Assembly: GCA_026387175.1 (NCBI GenBank)
Contig: JAPLME010000008.1
Location: 77,091 to 141,090 of the forward strand
Reading direction: 5' to 3'
Source of the DNA: Candidatus Omnitrophota bacterium
Lineage (GTDB): Bacteria > Omnitrophota > Gorgyraeia > 2-01-FULL-45-10
DNA: 64,000 nucleotides
In this document: positions 3,592-58,613 of the stretch, piece by piece
How positions within the stretch are numbered: the stretch's first letter is position 1
Layout of the letters: each line of letters opens with the position of its first letter
The notes under the pieces: generated by a model
Seen by the model: only the letters and a program-made list of their open reading frames with translations
Told to the model about the DNA's origin: nothing
Database searches by the model: none
Made by a program: the position numbers and the translations under genes

Positions 3592-3659
3592 GAAAATTAC
3601 CTAAGGTAATTTTCGTAAAGGTCCGCTTCGGTCACAAAAATCGATCAAGCGGACTTTTT
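3592..3659 (+). terminator. tandem hairpins after leuA; the second is followed by a T-run
   Basis: A perfect 10-bp stem (gaaaattacc/ggtaattttc, 3592-3614). Then an 8-bp stem (gtccgctt/aagcggac, 3621-3654) followed by ttttt (3655-3659). Confidence 0.45.
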
Positions 3660-3667
3660 GGCTAATT

Positions 3668-4537
3668 ATGGAAAAAAAGATATACGGAATAGTGGGTTAC
3701 CCTGTGAAGCATTCGCTCTCTCCGGCGATGCAGAATGCCGCATTTCGCGAGCTTAAGATAGATGCCGAGTACCGTCTGTTTGAAGTTCCGGGCTCGGACC
3801 TCGAGCGGTTCCTTGATGACGTAAGAGGCGGGAACGATATCTCGGGACTTAACGTGACTATACCGCATAAGATAAAGGCCAAAGAATATCTTGAACGCAA
3901 CGGTTCTCTGGACGGGAACGCCGTAAGGCTCGGCGCGGTAAACACGATAAAGGTATGCGACGACGGGACTTTGCGCGGGTTCAATACGGACGGGCCCGGT
4001 TTTTACCGGTCGCTCGTCGAGGACCTTAAGTTCGAGCCCGAGGGCAGGAATATTTTCGTGCTCGGCTCAGGCGGCGCTGCCAAGGCCATCGTTATGTATC
4101 TGGGTAACGCTCCGAAGAGCATATCGGTATTCGACACGGACGCGAGGAAGGCCGCCGAGCTCGCCTCCCATTATGCAAAATACTTCGATCGTAAAAAACT
4201 GAGGATATTATCGGACGCTAAAGAGGTCGGAGGCGTTATCGCGAAGTGCGATCTTTTAGTGAACGCGACGCCTATAGGGATGAATGAGTCGGATCCCTCG
4301 CCCGTATCGAAAGAGTTACTGCGCCCGGGACTATATATATATGACCTAGTTTACAATAGGCCTCACACGCAGCTCGTGAAAGACGCCAATGCGGCGAAGG
4401 CTCACGCTTTAACGGGACTCGGTATGCTATTGTATCAAGGCGCGGCGGCCTTTGAGATATGGACCGGCGCTCAAGCGCCGGTGGCTGTTATGAGGCGCGA
4501 GTTAGGAAAAGCGCTTAAGGAACAGGGCAAAGCCTGA
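3668..4537 (+). CDS. aroE: shikimate dehydrogenase
   Basis: 289 aa. The N-terminus (YGIVGYPVKHSLSPAMQNAAF) and the NTDGPGF motif are AroE hallmarks. Confidence 0.85.
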   Translation: MEKKIYGIVGYPVKHSLSPAMQNAAFRELKIDAEYRLFEVPGSDLERFLDDVRGGNDISGLNVTIPHKIKAKEYLERNGSLDGNAVRLGAVNTIKVCDDGTLRGFNTDGPGFYRSLVEDLKFEPEGRNIFVLGSGGAAKAIVMYLGNAPKSISVFDTDARKAAELASHYAKYFDRKKLRILSDAKEVGGVIAKCDLLVNATPIGMNESDPSPVSKELLRPGLYIYDLVYNRPHTQLVKDANAAKAHALTGLGMLLYQGAAAFEIWTGAQAPVAVMRRELGKALKEQGKA

Positions 4538-10278: not shown

Positions 10279-11151
10279 ATGCAGAGGTATATAGATAAGT
10301 TCATGAATTATCTGAAGGTCGAAAAGAATGCCTCGGAGCATACTATTATAAACTATACTATCGACCTGAATGTCTTTAAGGCCTTTCTCGGCGATAAAGA
10401 GATCGAAACGGTGGACCATCTGGCCTTGCGCCGTTATCTGGCGGAACTTCGAGCGAAGAATTATTCAAAGAGGACCGTCGCCAGAAAACTCGCTTCCTTG
10501 AGAAGCTTTTTCAGGTTTCTCTTCCGTGAAGGGCATATAAAAAAGAACCCTATAACCGCCGTCCTGACACCAAAGCTTGACAAGAAATTGCCGGTATTTC
10601 TGGACACAGCAAAGATAGATAGGCTTCTTTCTGCGCCTACGGATAAGGATCTTGCGGGCTTAAGAGACCGGGCGTTATTGGAGACATTATATTCGACCGG
10701 AATCCGCGTCAGCGAGCTGGTGGGTCTTGATCTCAGCGATATAGATTTTATAAGCGGAGTCATAAAGGTGCTCGGTAAGGGCCATAAGGAGCGGGTTGTA
10801 CCCATAGGGGAACCGGCATTGGCTGCTATAAGAAAGTATGTCGATAAGAAGGCCGATGAGAAGGTTAATGACAAGGATGCCGTATTCTTGAATAAATCCG
10901 GCGGCCGCCTCACGGATCGAAGCGTCAGGCGGGTATTGGATAAACATATTAAGACGTGCAGCATATCCGAAAAAATATCGCCGCATTCGCTCAGGCATTC
11001 CTTTGCGACCCATCTCTTAGATCGCGGCGCGGACCTGAGGAGCGTTCAGGAGCTTCTGGGCCACATGAACCTGTCGACGACGCAGATATATACGCATGTT
11101 ACGATGGAGCGGCTTAAGTCGGTATACGATAAAGCCCACCCACGGGCGTAG
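10279..11151 (+). CDS. tyrosine site-specific recombinase, XerC/XerD family
   Basis: 290 aa. It carries the R...HxxR...Y catalytic pattern (HSLRHSFATHLL...LGHMNLSTTQIYTHV). XerC versus XerD cannot be decided by eye. Confidence 0.75.
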   Translation: MQRYIDKFMNYLKVEKNASEHTIINYTIDLNVFKAFLGDKEIETVDHLALRRYLAELRAKNYSKRTVARKLASLRSFFRFLFREGHIKKNPITAVLTPKLDKKLPVFLDTAKIDRLLSAPTDKDLAGLRDRALLETLYSTGIRVSELVGLDLSDIDFISGVIKVLGKGHKERVVPIGEPALAAIRKYVDKKADEKVNDKDAVFLNKSGGRLTDRSVRRVLDKHIKTCSISEKISPHSLRHSFATHLLDRGADLRSVQELLGHMNLSTTQIYTHVTMERLKSVYDKAHPRA

Positions 11152-11435
11152 ATTTTTCGGCTCAAGCGTAAGTCTAGAGCCTTCGGGCACTTGCTTTCGC
11201 TCTTTACGAGCATCCCTCGCGTGGTGGTACTTCGCAGGGACGCAAAATTTCCCCTGCGAGGAAATTTTGCTCGGAAAGATCGCTCGCTCTTTTTGGCATA
11301 CAAGAATACCCGGGCCAAAAATCCGTGCCCGCTCGCGACTTTCGACGCCCTGCTTAGCACCACCCCGCGAGGGATAGCTGAGTAGCAGCGAAAGTATCGC
11401 CCGAAGGCTCTACTATTCGAGTGAGCCGAAAAATC
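11151..11435. repeat. 285-bp imperfect palindromic (long-hairpin) intergenic element, possible MITE or structured RNA
   Basis: The ends are perfect reverse complements. gatttttcggctca (11151-11164) pairs with tgagccgaaaaatc (11422-11435), and inside that tagagccttcgggc pairs with gcccgaaggctcta. Further inner arm pairs include atccctcgcg.ggtggt. The centre contains local hairpins (gcaaaatttcc...ggaaattttgc; tttttggc...gccaaaaa). Confidence 0.6.
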
Positions 11436-30314: not shown

Positions 30315-30995
30315 ATGCATATACCCGATGGATATCTGGGGCCCGCTACCTGCGGTTTTTTTTACGCGATAATGGTCCCGATATGGGCCCTGGCTTCAAA
30401 GATAGTCAAGAAGACGCTTAATGCGAAGCAGGTGCCGCTTCTAGCCATAGGCGCGGCATTCAGTTTTGTCATTATGATGTTCAATGTGCCGATACCCGGA
30501 GGAACGACAGGGCACGCTGTAGGAGGTGTGCTGGTCGCTATCCTTATAGGCCCCTGGGCGGCGTGCATAGCTATCACGGTTGCTTTGGCAGTGCAGGCGC
30601 TTCTTTTCGGAGACGGCGGTATCACCGCTCTCGGCGCGAATTGTTTTAATATGGCATTTGCGCTGCCGTTCGCCGGCTACTATATATATAAAGCAATCAG
30701 CTATAACTCTCCTATAGGTTCAAACAGAAGGGTCATCGCCGCGGGTATTGCCGGTTATATCGCTGTAAGCGTCGCGGCCTCTTTGACCGGATTCGAATTC
30801 GGCATTCAGCCGTTATTGCATAAGACAGCGTCCGGACAGGCGTTGTATTGCCCTTATGGGTTGAATGTGGCGCTGCCTGTCATGCTGGGAGAGCATCTTT
30901 TAGTATTCGGATGGATAGAGGCCCTCGTGACGGCGCTTGTCGTCAAATATCTGCAAAAACAGGATCTTGGTTTACTTGGAGACGGGAGAGGGTGA
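30315..30995 (+). CDS. cbiM: ECF-type cobalt/nickel transporter substrate-capture subunit CbiM/NikM
   Basis: 226 aa polytopic membrane protein. It begins MHIPDGYL, the hallmark N-terminus of CbiM/NikM. Confidence 0.7.
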   Translation: MHIPDGYLGPATCGFFYAIMVPIWALASKIVKKTLNAKQVPLLAIGAAFSFVIMMFNVPIPGGTTGHAVGGVLVAILIGPWAACIAITVALAVQALLFGDGGITALGANCFNMAFALPFAGYYIYKAISYNSPIGSNRRVIAAGIAGYIAVSVAASLTGFEFGIQPLLHKTASGQALYCPYGLNVALPVMLGEHLLVFGWIEALVTALVVKYLQKQDLGLLGDGRG

Positions 30996-31330
30996 TGAAG
31001 AAGAACACTGCCAGGTTATGGATCGGACTGGTGATATTAGTTATCCTGTCTCCTCTTGGAGTAATTCTCCCAAAATATTTTAAGGCAGGAACCGCCTGGG
31101 GGGAGTGGGGCGCAGATGAGATGCGCAAGCTTGTTGGTTATATCCCTTTCGGTTTTGATAAGCTTTCAACTATGTGGAATGCGCCGCTGTCCGGCTATAT
31201 TTTTAAAGGCTGGGATGAGAAGGGGTTGGGACATTTAAGTTTGTCTTATTTAGCCTCTGCGATATTAGGGATAGCCATTACAGTGGCGATCATGTTGTTT
31301 TTGGGAAGAATCTTAACAAAAAAACGATAA
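30995..31330 (+). CDS. CbiN-like small membrane protein (two TM helices flanking an external loop)
   Basis: 112 aa. Its start overlaps the cbiM stop (ATGA). The topology matches CbiN. The longer ORF call from 30848 is rejected. Confidence 0.45.
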   Translation: MKKNTARLWIGLVILVILSPLGVILPKYFKAGTAWGEWGADEMRKLVGYIPFGFDKLSTMWNAPLSGYIFKGWDEKGLGHLSLSYLASAILGIAITVAIMLFLGRILTKKR

Positions 31331-36470: not shown

Positions 36471-37366
36471 TGATGGATAGAATAGAAAGAAATATAAAAC
36501 GGCCCTTCTGGATAAATAAAAAGATCAATCTTAGAGATTGCGCCGATGTGAAGAAGAAACTCGGTAGTCTGGGTCTCAATACCGTCTGTGAAGAGGCGCT
36601 TTGCCCGAATATAGGGGAGTGTTTCTCTAAGGCTCAGGCCACGTTTCTTATCCTGGGAAAGATATGCACCAGGCAGTGCTCATTTTGCGGAGTGAAAAAG
36701 GGCTCTCCGTCACCGGTCGACCCCGATGAGCCCGCGAAGGTGGCAGATGGGGCGCGGCGACTGGGCCTGAGACATGTGGTTATAACAAGCGTTACGCGCG
36801 ACGACCTGCCAGACGGCGGAGCGCAGGCCTTTATCGATACCATATCGTGCCTGCGCAGGCACGAACGGAAAATCGTGATCGAGATATTGACGCCCGATTT
36901 TAATTTTGACAAATCCGCGATACAAAATGTAGCTATGGCCGAGCCGGATATCTTCGCTCACAACATAGAGACTGTGCCGCGGCTGTATATGGAAGCGCGT
37001 AACGGCGCGGATTACGACAGATCGCTCAGGGTGCTATCATATATAAAGGAATGCGATAATGCCATGCATGTGAAATCAGGCATCATGTTGGGCTTGGGTG
37101 AGCGCGAGGATGAGGTGCTTAGCACCTTCCGCGATATCGCCGGAACCGGATGTGATTTTTTAAGTATCGGGCAGTATCTCGCGCCAAGCAAGAATCATCT
37201 GCCGGTGAAGGAGTACGTATCTCCCGATAGATTCAAGCGGTACAAAGAGGATGCATTGAAAGCAGGTTTTCGCCATGTCGTAAGCGGCCCATATGTACGA
37301 AGCTCGTATTCGGCATCGGAATATCTGGAATCGGAAGGGGCACCGGTCAATGGCAGCTGTCAATAG
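36470..37366 (+). CDS. lipA: lipoyl synthase (radical SAM)
   Basis: 298 aa. It has the N-terminal auxiliary-cluster cysteines (CEEALCPNIGEC) and the radical-SAM motif CTRQCSFC. Confidence 0.85.
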   Translation: MMDRIERNIKRPFWINKKINLRDCADVKKKLGSLGLNTVCEEALCPNIGECFSKAQATFLILGKICTRQCSFCGVKKGSPSPVDPDEPAKVADGARRLGLRHVVITSVTRDDLPDGGAQAFIDTISCLRRHERKIVIEILTPDFNFDKSAIQNVAMAEPDIFAHNIETVPRLYMEARNGADYDRSLRVLSYIKECDNAMHVKSGIMLGLGEREDEVLSTFRDIAGTGCDFLSIGQYLAPSKNHLPVKEYVSPDRFKRYKEDALKAGFRHVVSGPYVRSSYSASEYLESEGAPVNGSCQ

Positions 37367-38189
37367 CAACAGGTTCATAGAGCGGTCGATTTCCGGTACG
37401 GTCTCTTTCTTGAAAGAGTCCGTCTTTTCGGATGAATACGCATCGAGAAAAGGCCTCCTGCAGTCCATTGATCCGAGGATGAAGCTTGTGACATTCGCGC
37501 TCTTGCTCCTGACGGTCTTGTTCACTAAAAGTATAGCAACGGTCTTTTATCTTTATGTCGTATCGCTTATATTTACCTATTTATCGAAGATCGATCTGGC
37601 CTTCTTCCTTAAGAGAACCTGGATATTCATTCCGCTATTCTCTCTCTTTATAGCTATTCCGGCGTTATTCAGTGTCTTCACTCCGGGGGAGACGATATCG
37701 GGCTTTAACGTCTTCGGATTACACTTTATTATTACGCGACAGGGATTATACGGCGCTTCATTATTTATTATGCGCGTTATAACTTCCGTATCTTTTGCTG
37801 TACTACTTAGCATCACCACGAAACATTTTGAACTTTTGAAGGTATTACGCATATTCAGGGTGCCTCAAGTCTTTGTTATGATACTGGGGATGTGCTACCG
37901 GTACATCTACTTATTTGCAGAAGTTGTAGAAAATACTTACCTCGCGATAAAGAGCCGCGTGGGGACAGCGATGCATTACAAGAAAGGCCAGCATATCGTA
38001 GCATGGAGCATGGCATCGCTCTGGTATAGGTCGTACCGGTTTAATGAGGAAGTGTATAGCGCGATGCTCTCGAGAGGGTATAGGGGAGAGCCCGTCATCT
38101 TCAATGATTTCAGGATGAGGTCAAGGGATTGGCTGTGGTTAGGTTTCGTGGTAATAATATGCGCTGTGCCCATATATCTGGCGCGTTAA
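37350..38189 (+). CDS. cbiQ: ECF transporter transmembrane component CbiQ/EcfT
   Basis: A polytopic membrane protein. The conserved CbiQ start (IDPRMKLVTFALLLL) supports an ATG at 37350 rather than 37293. It overlaps the lipA 3' end in another frame. Confidence 0.6.
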   Translation: MAAVNSNRFIERSISGTVSFLKESVFSDEYASRKGLLQSIDPRMKLVTFALLLLTVLFTKSIATVFYLYVVSLIFTYLSKIDLAFFLKRTWIFIPLFSLFIAIPALFSVFTPGETISGFNVFGLHFIITRQGLYGASLFIMRVITSVSFAVLLSITTKHFELLKVLRIFRVPQVFVMILGMCYRYIYLFAEVVENTYLAIKSRVGTAMHYKKGQHIVAWSMASLWYRSYRFNEEVYSAMLSRGYRGEPVIFNDFRMRSRDWLWLGFVVIICAVPIYLAR

Positions 38190-38208
38190 AATAAAGGCTT
38201 GATGGATC

Positions 38209-39024
38209 ATGAGTGATGCTGTATTTCAGTTAAGCGATATTCACTTCTCGTACCTTGGAAAATATCCGGCTCTTTGCGGGATAGACATGACGATCGAGAA
38301 GGGCCAGAAAGCGGTGATCATCGGCGCAAACGGCTCCGGCAAGTCAACACTTCTGCATATGCTCGATGGGCTCATATTCCCCAACAGAGGCACCATTACG
38401 GCTTTCGGCAGGGCGATGAGCGAAGAGGTGTTTAGCGATCAGGAGTTTTCTCGGGATTTCCGCAAGAAGGTCGGATTTGTATTCCAGAATCCCGATGTTC
38501 AGTTATTCTGCCCCAGCGTAAAAGAAGATATTCTCTTTGGGCCGCTCCAACTTAAAGAAGATAAAAAAGAGATCGAAAAGCGCCTTGAGAGGCTCATCGA
38601 CATTTTGGACATTAAAGAGTTGCTCGACAGGTCGCCTCATCAGTTGAGTGTCGGTGAAAAGAGAAAGGTTACGATAGCCTCGACCCTGATCATAGATCCT
38701 GAAGTGCTCCTTCTGGATGAGCCGACGGCCGGACTCGACCCATTGACCACCAGGCATATCATGGATTTTCTTATCAATGAGAACAAAGCCGGAAAGACGA
38801 TAATCACATCCACGCATGACCTGCATATCGTCGAAGAGATAGCGGATAAGGTCCTTGTATTCAGCCGAGATAAAAAGATAGTGAAGTCCGGATCCCCCGA
38901 AGAGATATTGAAGGATATGGCGCTTCTTCAGGAGCATAACCTGGTGCATATACATGCGCACAGGCATGACGGCCGGACACATGTCCACCCGCACGAGCAC
39001 CCCAGCCATGATCATACTCACTGA
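38209..39024 (+). CDS. cbiO: ECF/cobalt transporter ATP-binding subunit CbiO/EcfA with a histidine-rich C-terminal tail
   Basis: 271 aa. It has Walker A (GANGSGKST), the ABC signature (LSVGEKRKV) and Walker B (LLLDEPTAGLD). The C-terminal 25 aa are HIHAHRHDGRTHVHPHEHPSHDHTH. Confidence 0.75.
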   Translation: MSDAVFQLSDIHFSYLGKYPALCGIDMTIEKGQKAVIIGANGSGKSTLLHMLDGLIFPNRGTITAFGRAMSEEVFSDQEFSRDFRKKVGFVFQNPDVQLFCPSVKEDILFGPLQLKEDKKEIEKRLERLIDILDIKELLDRSPHQLSVGEKRKVTIASTLIIDPEVLLLDEPTAGLDPLTTRHIMDFLINENKAGKTIITSTHDLHIVEEIADKVLVFSRDKKIVKSGSPEEILKDMALLQEHNLVHIHAHRHDGRTHVHPHEHPSHDHTH

Positions 39025-39076
39025 TCATCTAGTTAAATTATAAAAAAGTTATATTTAGGCTATTGCTATATGGTAA

Positions 39077-39103
39077 ATTGTACTATATACTATATAGTAC
39101 AAT
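39077..39103. promoter_or_regulatory. perfect 27-bp palindrome, a likely operator, 18 nt upstream of the giant ORF
   Basis: ATTGTACTATATA-C-TATATAGTACAAT is an exact reverse complement about its central C (39090). It sits in an AT-rich leader just before the RBS and ATG at 39121. Confidence 0.5.
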
Positions 39104-39120
39104 AAAAAGGTAAATCATGT

Positions 39121-48589: not shown

Positions 48590-50266
48590 TTGATGAACGA
48601 GTTTTCAGTTCTTATAGGCGGCAAGGCTGGCTTTGGTATAGACAAAGCCAGCCTTATTATTGCCAGCCTTCTGGGCCAGCTGGGATACAGGAGCTATATA
48701 TATCGCGATTATCCCTCGCTGATCCGCGGCGGGCACACTTTCTCTATCATCAGGGCATCGACAGAAAAGGTGGCTACGTACAGAGATCAGATAGACGCGC
48801 TTCTGGCTTTAAATCAGGAGACGGTCGACCTTCATAAAGCGAGACTGAAAGGAAGCGGCATTATCATCTATGATTCCGATTCTGTGAATGCCGGAACGGT
48901 TTCCGGCGTCAAGAACGCGATAGGCTTGCCGCTGACAAGCATTATCAAAGAAGAGAAGGCCGGAGAAATAATGCGCAACACCTGTATTATAGGCGCCTTC
49001 GCGAAGTCCATATCCATCGAGTGGAATACCCTTGACGCTACGTTCAGAAAGAACTTTTCGAAAGAACTGGACCAGAATTTGAAAGTGGCCAGGAGGGCCT
49101 TCGATACCTCGAAAGAATTTACTGCATTGAAGAAATTAGCAAAGGAGAGATTGCCGTTAGTCACCGGTAATGAGGCGGTTGCCCTCGGGCTTGTGAGAGC
49201 AGGGCTTAAGAGCTATATCGCATATCCGATGACGCCGTCTTCGCCTATACTGCACTATCTCGCGAACCTGGCGGAAGAGTTCGATCTGAAAGTCGTTCAC
49301 CCTGAGAGCGAGATATCCGTTATAATGATGGCGCTCGGGATTGTCTATTGCGGCCATAAGGTCGCTGTAGGGACATCCGGCGGCGGTTTTTGTCTGATGA
49401 CAGAGGGGCTCAGTTTCTCAGGAATGGCGGAGCTGCCTGTAGTGATAGTAATGGGGCAGAGGCCGGGACCGTCGACAGGGCTGCCCACCTATAGCTGTCA
49501 GACCGAACTTCAGTTTGTCTTAAGCGCCGGGCAGGGTGAATTTACGCGTTTTGTGATAGCACCCGGTGACGCCGAGGAAGCTTATTATGCTTCACAGCTG
49601 GCTCTGCAGATATCATGGAAATATCAGATCCCGTCTATAGTGCTTACCGATAAAGCGATGGCCGAAGGGACTTATAGTTTTGATATAGGTTCGTGCGATG
49701 AGATAAAAGAAGAGGCCGCGGCATTATGGGACGGCCGGCCGCCATACAAGCGTTACTCTAATACCGATAGCGGCGTATCGCCTCTGGCGTTTCCCGGTAA
49801 GCCCGGCGTGGTGATTAAGGCCAATAGTTATGAACATGACGAGGCCGGTATCTCTACGGAAGATCCGGCCGTTACGGTTAAGATGCAGGATAAGAGGCTT
49901 CGCAAAGAGAAATATCTGGCAGCGGAGCTGGAGAATTATGAGTCTGTGAAGGTCCACGGCAATAAGAATTCCGCTACGGCGCTATTATGCTGGGGATCTA
50001 ACAAGGGTGTCTGCGTCGAGATCGCGAATATGCTGAATTTGAAAGTCATACAACCTGTTATTATGTCGCCTTTTCCGGCAGGGCGGTTCCGCAAGGCGCT
50101 CGAAGGCGTAAACAAAGTTATAGCGGTGGAAAATAACGCTATGGGACAGCTCACAAAAGTTATTAATACCTATGGGTTCAATGTCAATGCATCCATATTG
50201 AAATATGACGGCAGGGATTTCAGCCTCGAAGAACTGGAAGACAGGGTGAGGAAGGTGATAGGGTGA
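48590..50266 (+). CDS. korA: 2-oxoacid:ferredoxin oxidoreductase alpha subunit (fused alpha/gamma type)
   Basis: 558 aa. It has the N-terminal gamma-like domain and the YPMTPSSPI motif of OFOR alpha subunits. Confidence 0.8.
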   Translation: MMNEFSVLIGGKAGFGIDKASLIIASLLGQLGYRSYIYRDYPSLIRGGHTFSIIRASTEKVATYRDQIDALLALNQETVDLHKARLKGSGIIIYDSDSVNAGTVSGVKNAIGLPLTSIIKEEKAGEIMRNTCIIGAFAKSISIEWNTLDATFRKNFSKELDQNLKVARRAFDTSKEFTALKKLAKERLPLVTGNEAVALGLVRAGLKSYIAYPMTPSSPILHYLANLAEEFDLKVVHPESEISVIMMALGIVYCGHKVAVGTSGGGFCLMTEGLSFSGMAELPVVIVMGQRPGPSTGLPTYSCQTELQFVLSAGQGEFTRFVIAPGDAEEAYYASQLALQISWKYQIPSIVLTDKAMAEGTYSFDIGSCDEIKEEAAALWDGRPPYKRYSNTDSGVSPLAFPGKPGVVIKANSYEHDEAGISTEDPAVTVKMQDKRLRKEKYLAAELENYESVKVHGNKNSATALLCWGSNKGVCVEIANMLNLKVIQPVIMSPFPAGRFRKALEGVNKVIAVENNAMGQLTKVINTYGFNVNASILKYDGRDFSLEELEDRVRKVIG

Positions 50267-56708: not shown

Positions 56709-58613
56709 ATGCACGGCGTTACATTGTTTACCGAATACGATATCCATCTATTCAGGGAAGGTAGCCACTTCCGTCTTCATGAAAAACTTGGATCACATAT
56801 AATGACCGTGAATAAGGTCACAGGCGTATATTTTGCCGTATGGGCGCCTAATGCGGAATACGTATCGGTAGTCGGAGAATTTAACGGGTGGGACACGCAG
56901 TCCCATGCGATGGAAGTCAGGTGGGATGGTTCCGGGATCTGGGAGGCTTTCATCCCCGGTATAGGAAATGGGACCCTTTATAAATATTATATACGATCGA
57001 AATTCAATAATTATACCGTTGAGAAAGGGGACCCATTCGCGCTTCGCTGGGAAACTCCGCCGAAGACCGCCTCGATGGTGTGGGATACTACATATGAATG
57101 GGGCGATCGTTCCTGGTTAGATGAACGCCCAAAGCGTAACGCGCTATCTTCGCCTATATCCGTCTATGAGGTACACCTGGGGTCATGGAGGAGGGTTCCC
57201 GAAGAGGGCAACCGTTCCCTGGCGTATAGAGAGATTGCTCCTCTTCTCGCTGACTATATCAAAGAGATGGGATTCACTCATGTAGAGTTCATGCCCGTCA
57301 TGGAACATCCATTTTACGGTTCTTGGGGATATCAGATAACCGGATTTTTCGCGCCGACTTCCCGTTACGGTACGCCGCAGGATTTCATGTACCTTGTAGA
57401 TTACCTTCACCAAGAGGGGATAGGGGTGATCCTGGACTGGGTGCCTTCGCATTTTCCCGATGACCAGCACGGATTGATATATTTCGACGGCACGCATCTT
57501 TACGAACACGCGGACCCGCGTAAGGCCCTCCAACCCGAATGGAAGAGTTTCATATTTAACTATGGCCGCAACGAAGTCCGCAACTTCCTGGTCTCAAGCG
57601 CGATCTTCTGGTGCGACCGGTATCATGCCGACGGCATTCGCATCGACGCCGTCGCGTCTATGCTCTATCTGGACTATGCCCGGAAAGAGGGCGAATGGAT
57701 ACCTAACCAGTTCGGCGGCCGGGAGAATCTCGAGGCGGTGAGCTTTCTTAAGCATCTGAACGAAAGCGTCTATAAGGAATTTCCTTCCGTGCAGATCATT
57801 GCGGAAGAATCCACTGCCTGGCCGATGGTCACCCGTCCCATATATGACGGAGGCCTGGGGTTCGGCATGAAGTGGAACATGGGATGGATGCACGATATGC
57901 TCGAATATATTTCAAAAGATCCCATATTCCGAAAATACCACCATGGCTTGCTCACGTTCAGTCTCTTGTATGCCTTTACGGAGAATTTCATGCTGCCGTT
58001 ATCTCACGATGAAGTGACGCACGGCAAAGGGTCCCTTCTGAATAAAATACCGGGAGACTTATGGCAGAAATGCGCGGGGCTTCGCCAGCTGCTCGGATAC
58101 ATGTGGACGCATCCGGGAAAGAAGCTTCTCTTCATGGGATGCGAATTCGGCTCTACGGGAGAATGGAACCATGATCAGAGCCTGGACTGGCACATGTTGA
58201 GCGATCCCGGGCATCCGGGTATTCAGCGCTGGATGCGCGATTTGAACCATTTTTATAAGAACGAACCGGCTCTGTATGAGATAGATTTTTCATATGAAGG
58301 GTTCGAATGGGTCGATATAAAAGATTACGAAGAAAGCGTTATCTCTTTCCTCAGGAAAAGCCGCTCCAACCCGGCCGATACGCTCCTCATAGTCTGTAAT
58401 TTTACGCCTGTGCCGCGTTATAATTATCGTGTCGGTGTGCCCGCAGAAGGTTTCTGGAGAGAGGAGCTGAACAGCGATGCTCTGGAATATGGCGGAAGCG
58501 GCCAGGGCAATCTCGGCGGAGTCCTGTCCGAGTCCGTATCCTCCCACGGAAGGAGCCATTCCTTATCATTGATTCTCCCACCGCTTGGAATATTGATATT
58601 TAAAAGAGCATAA
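56709..58613 (+). CDS. glgB: 1,4-alpha-glucan branching enzyme (short form lacking the N1 domain)
   Basis: 634 aa. It has a CBM48-like N-terminus and GH13 regions (DWVPSHF; GIRIDAVASMLY; AEEST; SHDEV). Confidence 0.85.
   Translation: MHGVTLFTEYDIHLFREGSHFRLHEKLGSHIMTVNKVTGVYFAVWAPNAEYVSVVGEFNGWDTQSHAMEVRWDGSGIWEAFIPGIGNGTLYKYYIRSKFNNYTVEKGDPFALRWETPPKTASMVWDTTYEWGDRSWLDERPKRNALSSPISVYEVHLGSWRRVPEEGNRSLAYREIAPLLADYIKEMGFTHVEFMPVMEHPFYGSWGYQITGFFAPTSRYGTPQDFMYLVDYLHQEGIGVILDWVPSHFPDDQHGLIYFDGTHLYEHADPRKALQPEWKSFIFNYGRNEVRNFLVSSAIFWCDRYHADGIRIDAVASMLYLDYARKEGEWIPNQFGGRENLEAVSFLKHLNESVYKEFPSVQIIAEESTAWPMVTRPIYDGGLGFGMKWNMGWMHDMLEYISKDPIFRKYHHGLLTFSLLYAFTENFMLPLSHDEVTHGKGSLLNKIPGDLWQKCAGLRQLLGYMWTHPGKKLLFMGCEFGSTGEWNHDQSLDWHMLSDPGHPGIQRWMRDLNHFYKNEPALYEIDFSYEGFEWVDIKDYEESVISFLRKSRSNPADTLLIVCNFTPVPRYNYRVGVPAEGFWREELNSDALEYGGSGQGNLGGVLSESVSSHGRSHSLSLILPPLGILIFKRA

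Follow-up and report, generated by a model that had tools for sequence, protein, structure and literature searches.

The DNA analysed here, a stretch of 64,000 nucleotides from an uncultured Omnitrophota bacterium that we refer to as the window, contains a perfect palindrome of 27 bp just ahead of the gene for a very large multidomain protein (the giant gene). Is this palindrome an operator for the giant gene, and if so, for what kind of regulator, or does its symmetry have some other origin? The two features at issue are the following.

39077..39103, no strand assigned: perfect 13-1-13 palindrome ATTGTACTATATA-C-TATATAGTACAAT, candidate operator
39121..44739, + strand: gene for a multidomain protein of 1872 aa

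The palindrome and its expected frequency

All of the pairs around C39090 are complementary (13/13), and the palindrome is bounded by an A/A pair at 39076/39104. The original prediction, which had described a perfect 27-bp palindrome at 39077-39103, 18 nt before a start codon, proved to be exact in sequence and in coordinates: the in-frame ATG of the giant gene is at 39121, with 17 bases between, and its first base lies 18 nt past the palindrome end. Another ATG, at 39117, is out of frame with respect to the giant gene and opens an ORF of 8 codons. The palindrome can alternatively be read as ATTGTAC-N13-GTACAAT with a TA-repeat spacer, and the TTGTAC-N13-GTACAA contained in it spans 25 bp; when viewed as halves of the TGTACTATA type, its spacing is TGTACTATA-N5-TATAGTACA and its full pattern is TGTACTATANNNNNTATAGTACA.

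Chance alone is an unlikely origin for this symmetry, as the original prediction had also held. Of 200 order-2 Markov copies of the whole window, 4 had perfect arms of at least 13 nt with a spacer of 0-8 nt. When only the window's 1.5 kb of intergenic DNA was simulated, 3000 runs gave no such arms, and arms of at least 11 nt were reached in 0.5% of the runs; the 27-mer with 3 or fewer mismatches occurred in none of 100 shuffles. The informative portion of the palindrome is the outer pair ATTGTAC/GTACAAT (P ~5e-4 at the local base composition), because the inner 13 nt, TATATACTATATA (TATATA-C-TATATA), resemble a TA repeat, for which self-complementarity is cheap.

It had also been claimed that the window contains nothing comparable elsewhere. 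This is correct insofar as the 27-mer is the longest perfect inverted repeat with a spacer near zero, but the window contains other perfect inverted repeats as well. A second perfect odd palindrome, GAAAATTACCT-A-AGGTAATTTTC (11-1-11), occupies 3592-3614 in the leuA-aroE intergenic region and is followed directly, at 3617-3668, by a terminator-like hairpin with a T-run (GTCCGCTT...AAGCGGACTTTTT). At 11242-11270, 93 nt after a gene for a XerC/D-type tyrosine recombinase (region 10279-11270), there is a perfect 11-7-11 repeat, GCAAAATTTCC-CCTGCGA-GGAAATTTTGC. A perfect 13-7-13 G+C-rich repeat, AAGGCTGGCTTTG-GTATAGA-CAAAGCCAGCCTT, which may form an mRNA hairpin near the translation start, lies at 48623-48655 in the first ~25 codons of an oxoacid:ferredoxin oxidoreductase gene (ORF 48590-50266), and a perfect 14-20-14 repeat with no T-run after it lies at 58618-58665, just past a glgB-like branching-enzyme gene (56709-58613).

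Genes flanking the site

38209..39024, + strand: ECF-type ABC ATPase, cbiO-like, with the His-rich C-terminal tail HIHAHRHDGRTHVHPHEHPSHDHTH
44812..45219, + strand: rrf2 regulator gene, with likely start MKLLTRN at 44812 (longest ORF from 44785)

The genes upstream of the giant gene are gcvT-H-P1-P2, lplA, lipA, cbiQ and the cbiO-type ATPase, and those downstream are rrf2, a ferredoxin-like gene, a small Zn-ribbon ORF, hcp, a tpx-PCD fusion and more oxidative-stress genes. We confirmed the flanking genes named in the original prediction, cbiO before the giant gene and rrf2 after it, as an ECF/CbiO-type ABC ATPase and an Rrf2 protein, respectively. Its further statement that no regulator gene is adjacent did not hold, as rrf2, next door to the giant gene, encodes a dimeric wHTH regulator (Pfam Rrf2, 1e-31; NCBIfam rrf2 superfamily). 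No regulator other than Rrf2 was found among the ~65 ORFs of the window or in the 13-kb extensions.

The ECF Ni/Co transporter genes of the window are split (30315-31330 and 37293-39024): cbiM and a PDGLE-domain gene come first, 6 kb ahead of cbiQ-cbiO, and the interval is occupied by a separately promoted gcvT, H, P1, P2 set and lplA-lipA; two related loci, L003 and L004, keep the order gcvP-lplA-lipA-cbiQ-cbiO. On the other side of the giant gene, the segment 44785-56700 is a dense oxidative/nitrosative stress island with genes for Rrf2, Hcp, the Tpx-PCD fusion, ferredoxin, OFOR, flavin reductase-rubredoxin, a flavodiiron protein, a ferritin-like protein, desulfoferrodoxin, glutaredoxin, a thioredoxin reductase-like protein and Ogg. 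Almost every gene of the window is on the + strand, and every 2-kb bin has a positive GC skew; the window is probably part of one replichore whose genes are strongly co-oriented.

The promoter region of the giant gene

39063..39068, + strand: candidate -35 hexamer TTGCTA, from a consensus scan
39086..39091, + strand: candidate -10 hexamer TATACT, within the palindrome and 17 nt past the -35, from the same kind of scan; identical in L003
39106..39111, + strand: Shine-Dalgarno-like AAAGGT, read from the sequence, with its end ~10 nt before the ATG

The genome is very compact, and the spacer between cbiO and the giant gene, at 96 nt, counts among about a dozen true intergenic regions. The spacer's best sigma-70-like match is TTGCTA-17-TATACT, the -10 hexamer of which lies in the middle of the palindrome, and transcription would likely start in the palindrome's right arm. 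This match agrees with the consensus at 9/12 positions, which is weak when taken alone, and the scanned region contained 19 such matches as compared with 15.4 expected from shuffles. At the aligned position L003 reads TTGACG-17-TATACT, and an A/T-rich block farther upstream is conserved as well; the conserved promoter and the block together argue for an independent promoter of the giant gene. L004 has a TGgTATAAT promoter at the aligned place, and the Shine-Dalgarno region, AAAAAGG/AAAAGGG, is kept in both relatives. A terminator scan detected no terminator-like site after cbiO.

The placement of the palindrome fits that of a repressor site, because it covers the best sigma-70-like promoter and the position of this promoter is kept in a relative. 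To this extent the original prediction, which had placed the palindrome in the position of an operator, was strengthened by our observations, although its interpretation as a whole was supported only in part.

Comparison with related loci

We compared the site with its counterparts in L003 and L004, which are syntenic with the window (the order lplA-lipA-cbiQ-cbiO-giant-rrf2-fer is kept) and whose giant proteins are 71% and 70% identical, respectively, to that of the window. L003 reads ATATCAATATATA-C-TATATAATATAAT at the site. The 13-nt core is identical to that of the window, and all 6 differences fall in the outer arms. In L003, 9/13 pairs are complementary, which is unremarkable for a pure A/T sequence; the 4 pairs that do not match there all match in the window, in which the other 9 are also intact. 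Taken by itself, the alignment would point to selection for symmetry or else to one templated mutational event in a single lineage, and neutral decay of an ancestral palindrome in L003 would fit equally well; three sequences do not determine the direction of the change.

No palindrome was present in the aligned region of L004, and no comparable dyad was found upstream of more distant homologues (38-46% identity) at 6 loci, L005 and L007-L011, where the wHTH module of the giant protein is kept. Among the loci compared, the perfect palindrome was confined to the window's species. L001, L002, L052 and L053 match the window at 100% identity, and L054 has 3 SNPs, which lie outside the palindrome. 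The organism had been assembled from SRR20698638 and SRR25046533. Over the locus, three independent assemblies of the species show no differences; these copies are clonal throughout and carry no population-level signal. Upstream of the homologue of 38% identity (L009 2900-2990) we observed an 11-mer, TATAGTACAAT, and a 13-mer, ATAAAAAGGTAAA, that are common to the promoter region of the window and are set apart by ~20 extra bases. Such shared blocks are unexpected at that divergence and may represent a -10 or start-site signal plus a Shine-Dalgarno signal.

A separate inverted repeat in the rrf2 promoter

44777..44805, + strand: promoter of the rrf2 operon, TTGACA-17-TATCAT, with TGg before the -10; 11/12 consensus match, identical in L003 and L004
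44784..44806, no strand assigned: 23-bp inverted repeat AATGATAC-N7-GTATCATT in the rrf2 promoter, which differs from the 27-mer in sequence and register

The rrf2 promoter and its repeat are identical, base for base, in the window (44777-44817), L003 (9231-9262) and L004 (7559-7590), and the Rrf2 proteins of the three loci are 63-86% identical. The three proteins do not differ in the segment PRPFLRKILQ-LNK, the putative recognition helix. No match to the repeat was found elsewhere in the window. The repeat is a strong candidate for the autoregulatory operator through which Rrf2 would probably control the rrf2-ferredoxin-hcp-tpx operon.

Searches for further copies

The original prediction had proposed a search for other copies of the half-site as a check. 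Searches for the half-site and for the 7-N13-7 arrangement returned only the site itself in the 64-kb window and 13 kb more of the same genome, and returned none in ~100 kb of related Omnitrophota loci. The palindrome is single copy in the 64 kb + 13 kb of the genome that were covered; a dispersed REP- or MITE-like repeat would be recognized by multiple copies in the genome. Scans of genome contigs and of metagenome contigs used TGTACTATA-N7-TATAGTACA, where the site has N5, and their 10 and 30 matches, respectively, which were mostly scattered among unrelated taxa at about the frequency estimated for chance, are not informative on copies of the real site. An N5-spaced scan of viral contigs gave 1 match, in an unrelated phage, and the literature searched by palindrome sequence yielded only primers and unrelated sequences.

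Half-sites of the TGTACTATA type do adjoin regulator genes in other bacteria, as two leads from the N7-spaced scans show. In Lactobacillus iners DSM 13335 (L018 6741-6767; also L033), TTGTACTATA-N7-TATAGTACAA lies over a TTGACA-16-TATACT promoter; a GntR-ABC operon follows directly, with a YtrA-like GntR gene and a gene for an ABC ATPase. The 10-nt half-site TTGTACTATA is common to this site and the palindrome, and the two L. iners half-sites are 2 bp farther apart. The L. iners GntR ORF, in the frame listed, appears to be without a canonical start codon. In Acidobacteria-type contigs (L019 4171-4195; also L022, L029, L038 and L045) we observed recurrence of TGTACTATACCATTGGTATAGTACA, as the perfect 25-bp palindrome TGTACTATACCA-T-TGGTATAGTACA, with flanks conserved in most copies and one copy that differs by one base. 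In L019 this palindrome is directly upstream of a gene pair for an AbrB/VapB-like antitoxin and a PIN-domain protein, and it is probably a toxin-antitoxin operator.

Comparison with known operator systems

Three operator classes have a geometry similar to that of the palindrome. Rrf2 operators are inverted repeats of 23-27 bp that overlap the -10 and are bound by dimers, and the HypR operator of S. aureus, TAATTGTAACTA-N3-CAGTTACAATTA (12-3-12), is 27 bp long and overlaps the -10 (PMC6067689). The 13-1-13 palindrome is likewise a dyad of this size over a core promoter, where it covers TATACT; an Rrf2 gene is nearby; and ATTGTA/TACAAT is present in both the palindrome and the HypR site, although the ATTGTA blocks of the palindrome are 2 bp farther from the dyad on each side. 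In contrast to what is expected of an Rrf2 operator, however, the same motif does not recur at the autoregulated promoter, since rrf2 carries a different repeat there, and L003 and L004 conserve the regulator but not the 27-mer.

NikR operators are 27-28 bp long, with the sequences GTGTTAC-[N13/14]-GTAACAC in delta-proteobacteria and GTATGAT-[N13/14]-ATCATAC in enterobacteria (PMC545781). The arrangement ATTGTAC-N13-GTACAAT agrees with this geometry of 7-bp half-sites that lie 13-14 bp apart within 27-28 bp; its half-site ends in TAC, and genes of the cbiQ/cbiO type adjoin it, with a His-rich tail on the ATPase. Unlike NikR operators, which precede nickel transporter or nickel-enzyme operons, the palindrome lies downstream of the transporter genes and faces a carbohydrate enzyme gene, and its half-site matches at only 4/7 positions. 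No similar site occurs elsewhere in the window, the region upstream of cbiM at 30315 included. No RHH/NikR_C protein was found among the ORFs of the 64-kb window.

Bacterial operators of YtrA-type GntR regulators are ~24 bp long and have distant half-sites (PMC6746942), and TTGTAC-N13-GTACAA, at 25 bp, agrees with this pattern. The palindrome resembles the L. iners site, in particular, in being a long dyad whose outer half-sites are specific and whose centre is A/T-rich, and both are positioned over TTGnnn-16/17-TATACT, whereas the spacer of the palindrome is 2 bp shorter. Also unlike the YtrA-type systems, the adjacent ABC ATPase is ECF-type, is upstream, and is outside any regulator-led operon; no GntR-domain protein was found in the window or in the 13-kb extensions. 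The palindrome is operator-like, and we assign it to no family: its geometry agrees with that of Rrf2, NikR and YtrA-type GntR operators, and in each of the three comparisons at least one feature of its context disagrees.

Several other readings were rejected. An intrinsic terminator does not fit, as only 2/13 pairs are G-C, AAAAAGG follows instead of a T-run, and the terminator scan made no call. No known structured RNA was matched in Rfam at the gathering threshold anywhere in the window, and a tRNA reading of the palindrome was likewise dismissed. LacI/cre-type sugar operators are sites of 14-20 bp with a central CG, and neither the length nor the centre of the palindrome fits. There is a resemblance to the NrdR box and the LexA box, but the register and spacing are wrong and nrd or SOS genes are absent.

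The giant protein and its wHTH module

43789..43920, + strand: wHTH-like module of the giant protein, ~aa 1557-1600, from AlphaFold and Foldseek

The product of the giant gene is 100% identical to an NCBI entry, 'glycogen/starch synthase [Candidatus Omnitrophica bacterium]', encoded on a MAG contig of 237 kb. The order of its domains is a signal-peptide-like N-terminus, a GT5/alpha-glucan-phosphorylase-like region, a GH13 alpha-amylase, the wHTH module and a conserved C-terminal alpha/beta region. All homologues have a K/R-rich N-terminus followed by ~15 hydrophobic residues and then xWA, and because this signal-peptide-like stretch is the sole hydrophobic segment, the bulk of the protein is predicted to be exported and to lie outside the cytoplasm. 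Apparent export is odd for a glucan enzyme of the nucleotide-sugar or phosphorylase type. The homologues are mainly from Omnitrophota MAGs, are up to 3098 aa long, and show many alternative fusions (debranching enzyme, ROK, PFK, GNAT and Sigma70_r4).

An AlphaFold model of aa 1533-1872 had a mean pLDDT of 77, with ~85 in the module, and predicted a helix-helix-beta-hairpin at aa 1557-1600. Foldseek matched the module to wHTH regulators of the PDB (MarR, SmtB, IdeR and CymR; probability ~1, E ~1e-2) and also to O-methyltransferase dimerisation domains; Pfam gave HTH_36 only, at E=0.055. Distant homologues have the module conserved, and it is deleted from the giant proteins of the two nearest relatives: aa 1536-1650 are missing from P0002 and aa 954-1667 from P0003.

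Alternative explanations for the palindrome

The symmetry of the palindrome could be a functionless by-product of mutation, whereby a TA-rich -10 quasi-palindrome such as that of L003 was perfected and the promoter alone is functional, a reading that we regard as somewhat doubtful, although it is the main rival of the operator. The route would be a few substitutions at unconstrained spacer or start-site positions, or one intramolecular template switch (quasipalindrome correction, an established mechanism), and one such switch would give perfect symmetry without selection. The part of the site that is conserved is exactly the promoter-like core TATATACTATATA and the flanking AATAAAAAGG; the outer arms differ from L003 at 6/14 positions, similar to the neighbouring promoter spacer at 6/16; and a site that is single-copy and absent from relatives is what this explanation predicts. 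Yet chance alone is unlikely, as described above, and the template switch is no more than a possibility here. A perfect AT-rich palindrome over a -10 would moreover be expected to affect the promoter and, if neutral, to decay fast, whereas the palindrome is identical in three independent samples, though clonal ones. Alternatively, the palindrome might act as a nucleic-acid structure, either a cruciform extruded at the -10 under supercoiling, or an RNA hairpin with a role in stability, processing or start-region masking in transcripts that read through from cbiO. Extrusion is easy for perfect AT-rich palindromes whose loops are very small, and promoters in engineered constructs are reportedly regulated by cruciforms when a palindrome over the -10 responds to supercoiling; the site resembles these as a perfect AT-rich palindrome centred on a -10 hexamer. 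The DNA hairpin has a computed energy of -8.3 kcal/mol (z = -6.6), the RNA folds at -13.8 kcal/mol with an outer helix in which 39067-39074 pairs with 39114-39121, and the lack of a terminator after cbiO would permit read-through. The RNA z-score is only -2.3, however, and 3/200 shuffles fold as well; the stem is A-U/G-U apart from two G-C pairs, with no U-run after it and no Rfam match; its pairing is not kept in L003 or L004; and a start after TATACT would leave the right arm alone to be transcribed. We consider a structural role very unlikely.

The remaining alternatives assign the palindrome to a protein encoded at the locus itself. Binding by the adjacent Rrf2 (44812-45219), under whose control the giant gene would come alongside the hcp/tpx stress operon of Rrf2 itself, is suggested by the position of rrf2 immediately downstream of the giant gene and by the size, location and ATTGTA/TACAAT blocks that the palindrome has in common with Rrf2-family sites. 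This appears quite unlikely to us, in that the strong promoter of rrf2 bears its own repeat, identical in the window, L003 and L004, and the putative recognition helix is invariant in the three proteins, yet the 27-mer is absent from L003 and L004. Furthermore, the TGATAC half-sites of the one site and the TGTAC half-sites of the other are 2-3 bp out of register from the dyad, with inner gaps of 7 nt and 13 nt, and it is unlikely that the two would be recognized alike by one Rrf2 dimer. The original prediction had suggested instead that the C-terminal wHTH of the giant protein could be the binder. Its fold is, as far as structure prediction can tell, a real one, and among the three syntenic loci the perfect palindrome is present only where the wHTH is present, although this co-occurrence rests on three loci. 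One could then conceive of the giant protein as a trigger enzyme of the PutA kind, whose wHTH would bind its own promoter before or instead of export, and whose two closest relatives would have lost wHTH and operator together; such autoregulation would couple the state or localisation of the enzyme to its own transcription. The signal-peptide-like N-terminus in all homologues, which would place the bulk of the protein outside the cytoplasm, the lack of a comparable upstream palindrome at six loci whose proteins keep the wHTH, and the occurrence of wHTH folds in non-DNA roles such as O-methyltransferase dimerisation all speak against this suggestion, and we consider it extremely unlikely.

A candidate lineage-specific operator

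The explanation that we favour, with a probability of roughly 0.45, is that the palindrome is a lineage-specific operator over the core promoter of the giant gene, bound by a regulator that is encoded outside the DNA read here. The outer half-sites ATTGTAC and GTACAAT would be contacted by a symmetric regulator, which might be a dimer of the wHTH type or a NikR-like tetramer. They are separated by about two turns of the helix, with the TA-rich spacer and its -10 hexamer in between, and the bound regulator would block RNA polymerase. Direct observations on the sequence are the palindrome itself, how improbable it is, and that it overlaps the best promoter match; from these we infer use of the promoter, binding of a protein and repression by that binding.

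The operator reading is favoured by the perfect symmetry over 27 bp, with arms of 13 nt reached in none of the intergenic simulations, and by the confinement of all 6 L003 differences to the outer arms, a pattern that drift from an L003-like sequence is not expected to give. It is also favoured by the agreement of the geometry with the published Rrf2/HypR, NikR and YtrA-type GntR operator classes and by the half-site TTGTACTATA, which overlaps a promoter upstream of the GntR-ABC operon of L. iners. The same reading is weakened because the site is not conserved, L003 keeping only the core and L004 being without a palindrome; because no second copy or paired half-site was present in the DNA searched; because the only candidate regulator found, Rrf2, has a different conserved repeat of its own; and because the promoter call is 9/12, with matches no commoner than in shuffles, and the copies from the same species are identical.

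To our knowledge, almost nothing is known of regulation in the Omnitrophota phylum. If the palindrome is a real operator, it would provide a handle on the control of a very large, apparently exported alpha-glucan-processing protein in an uncultured member of this phylum. As one unconserved candidate site, it matters little beyond the annotation of the locus; the more useful by-products of the analysis are the firmly conserved repeat at 44784-44806, a candidate operator of Rrf2, and the unusual architecture of the giant protein family.
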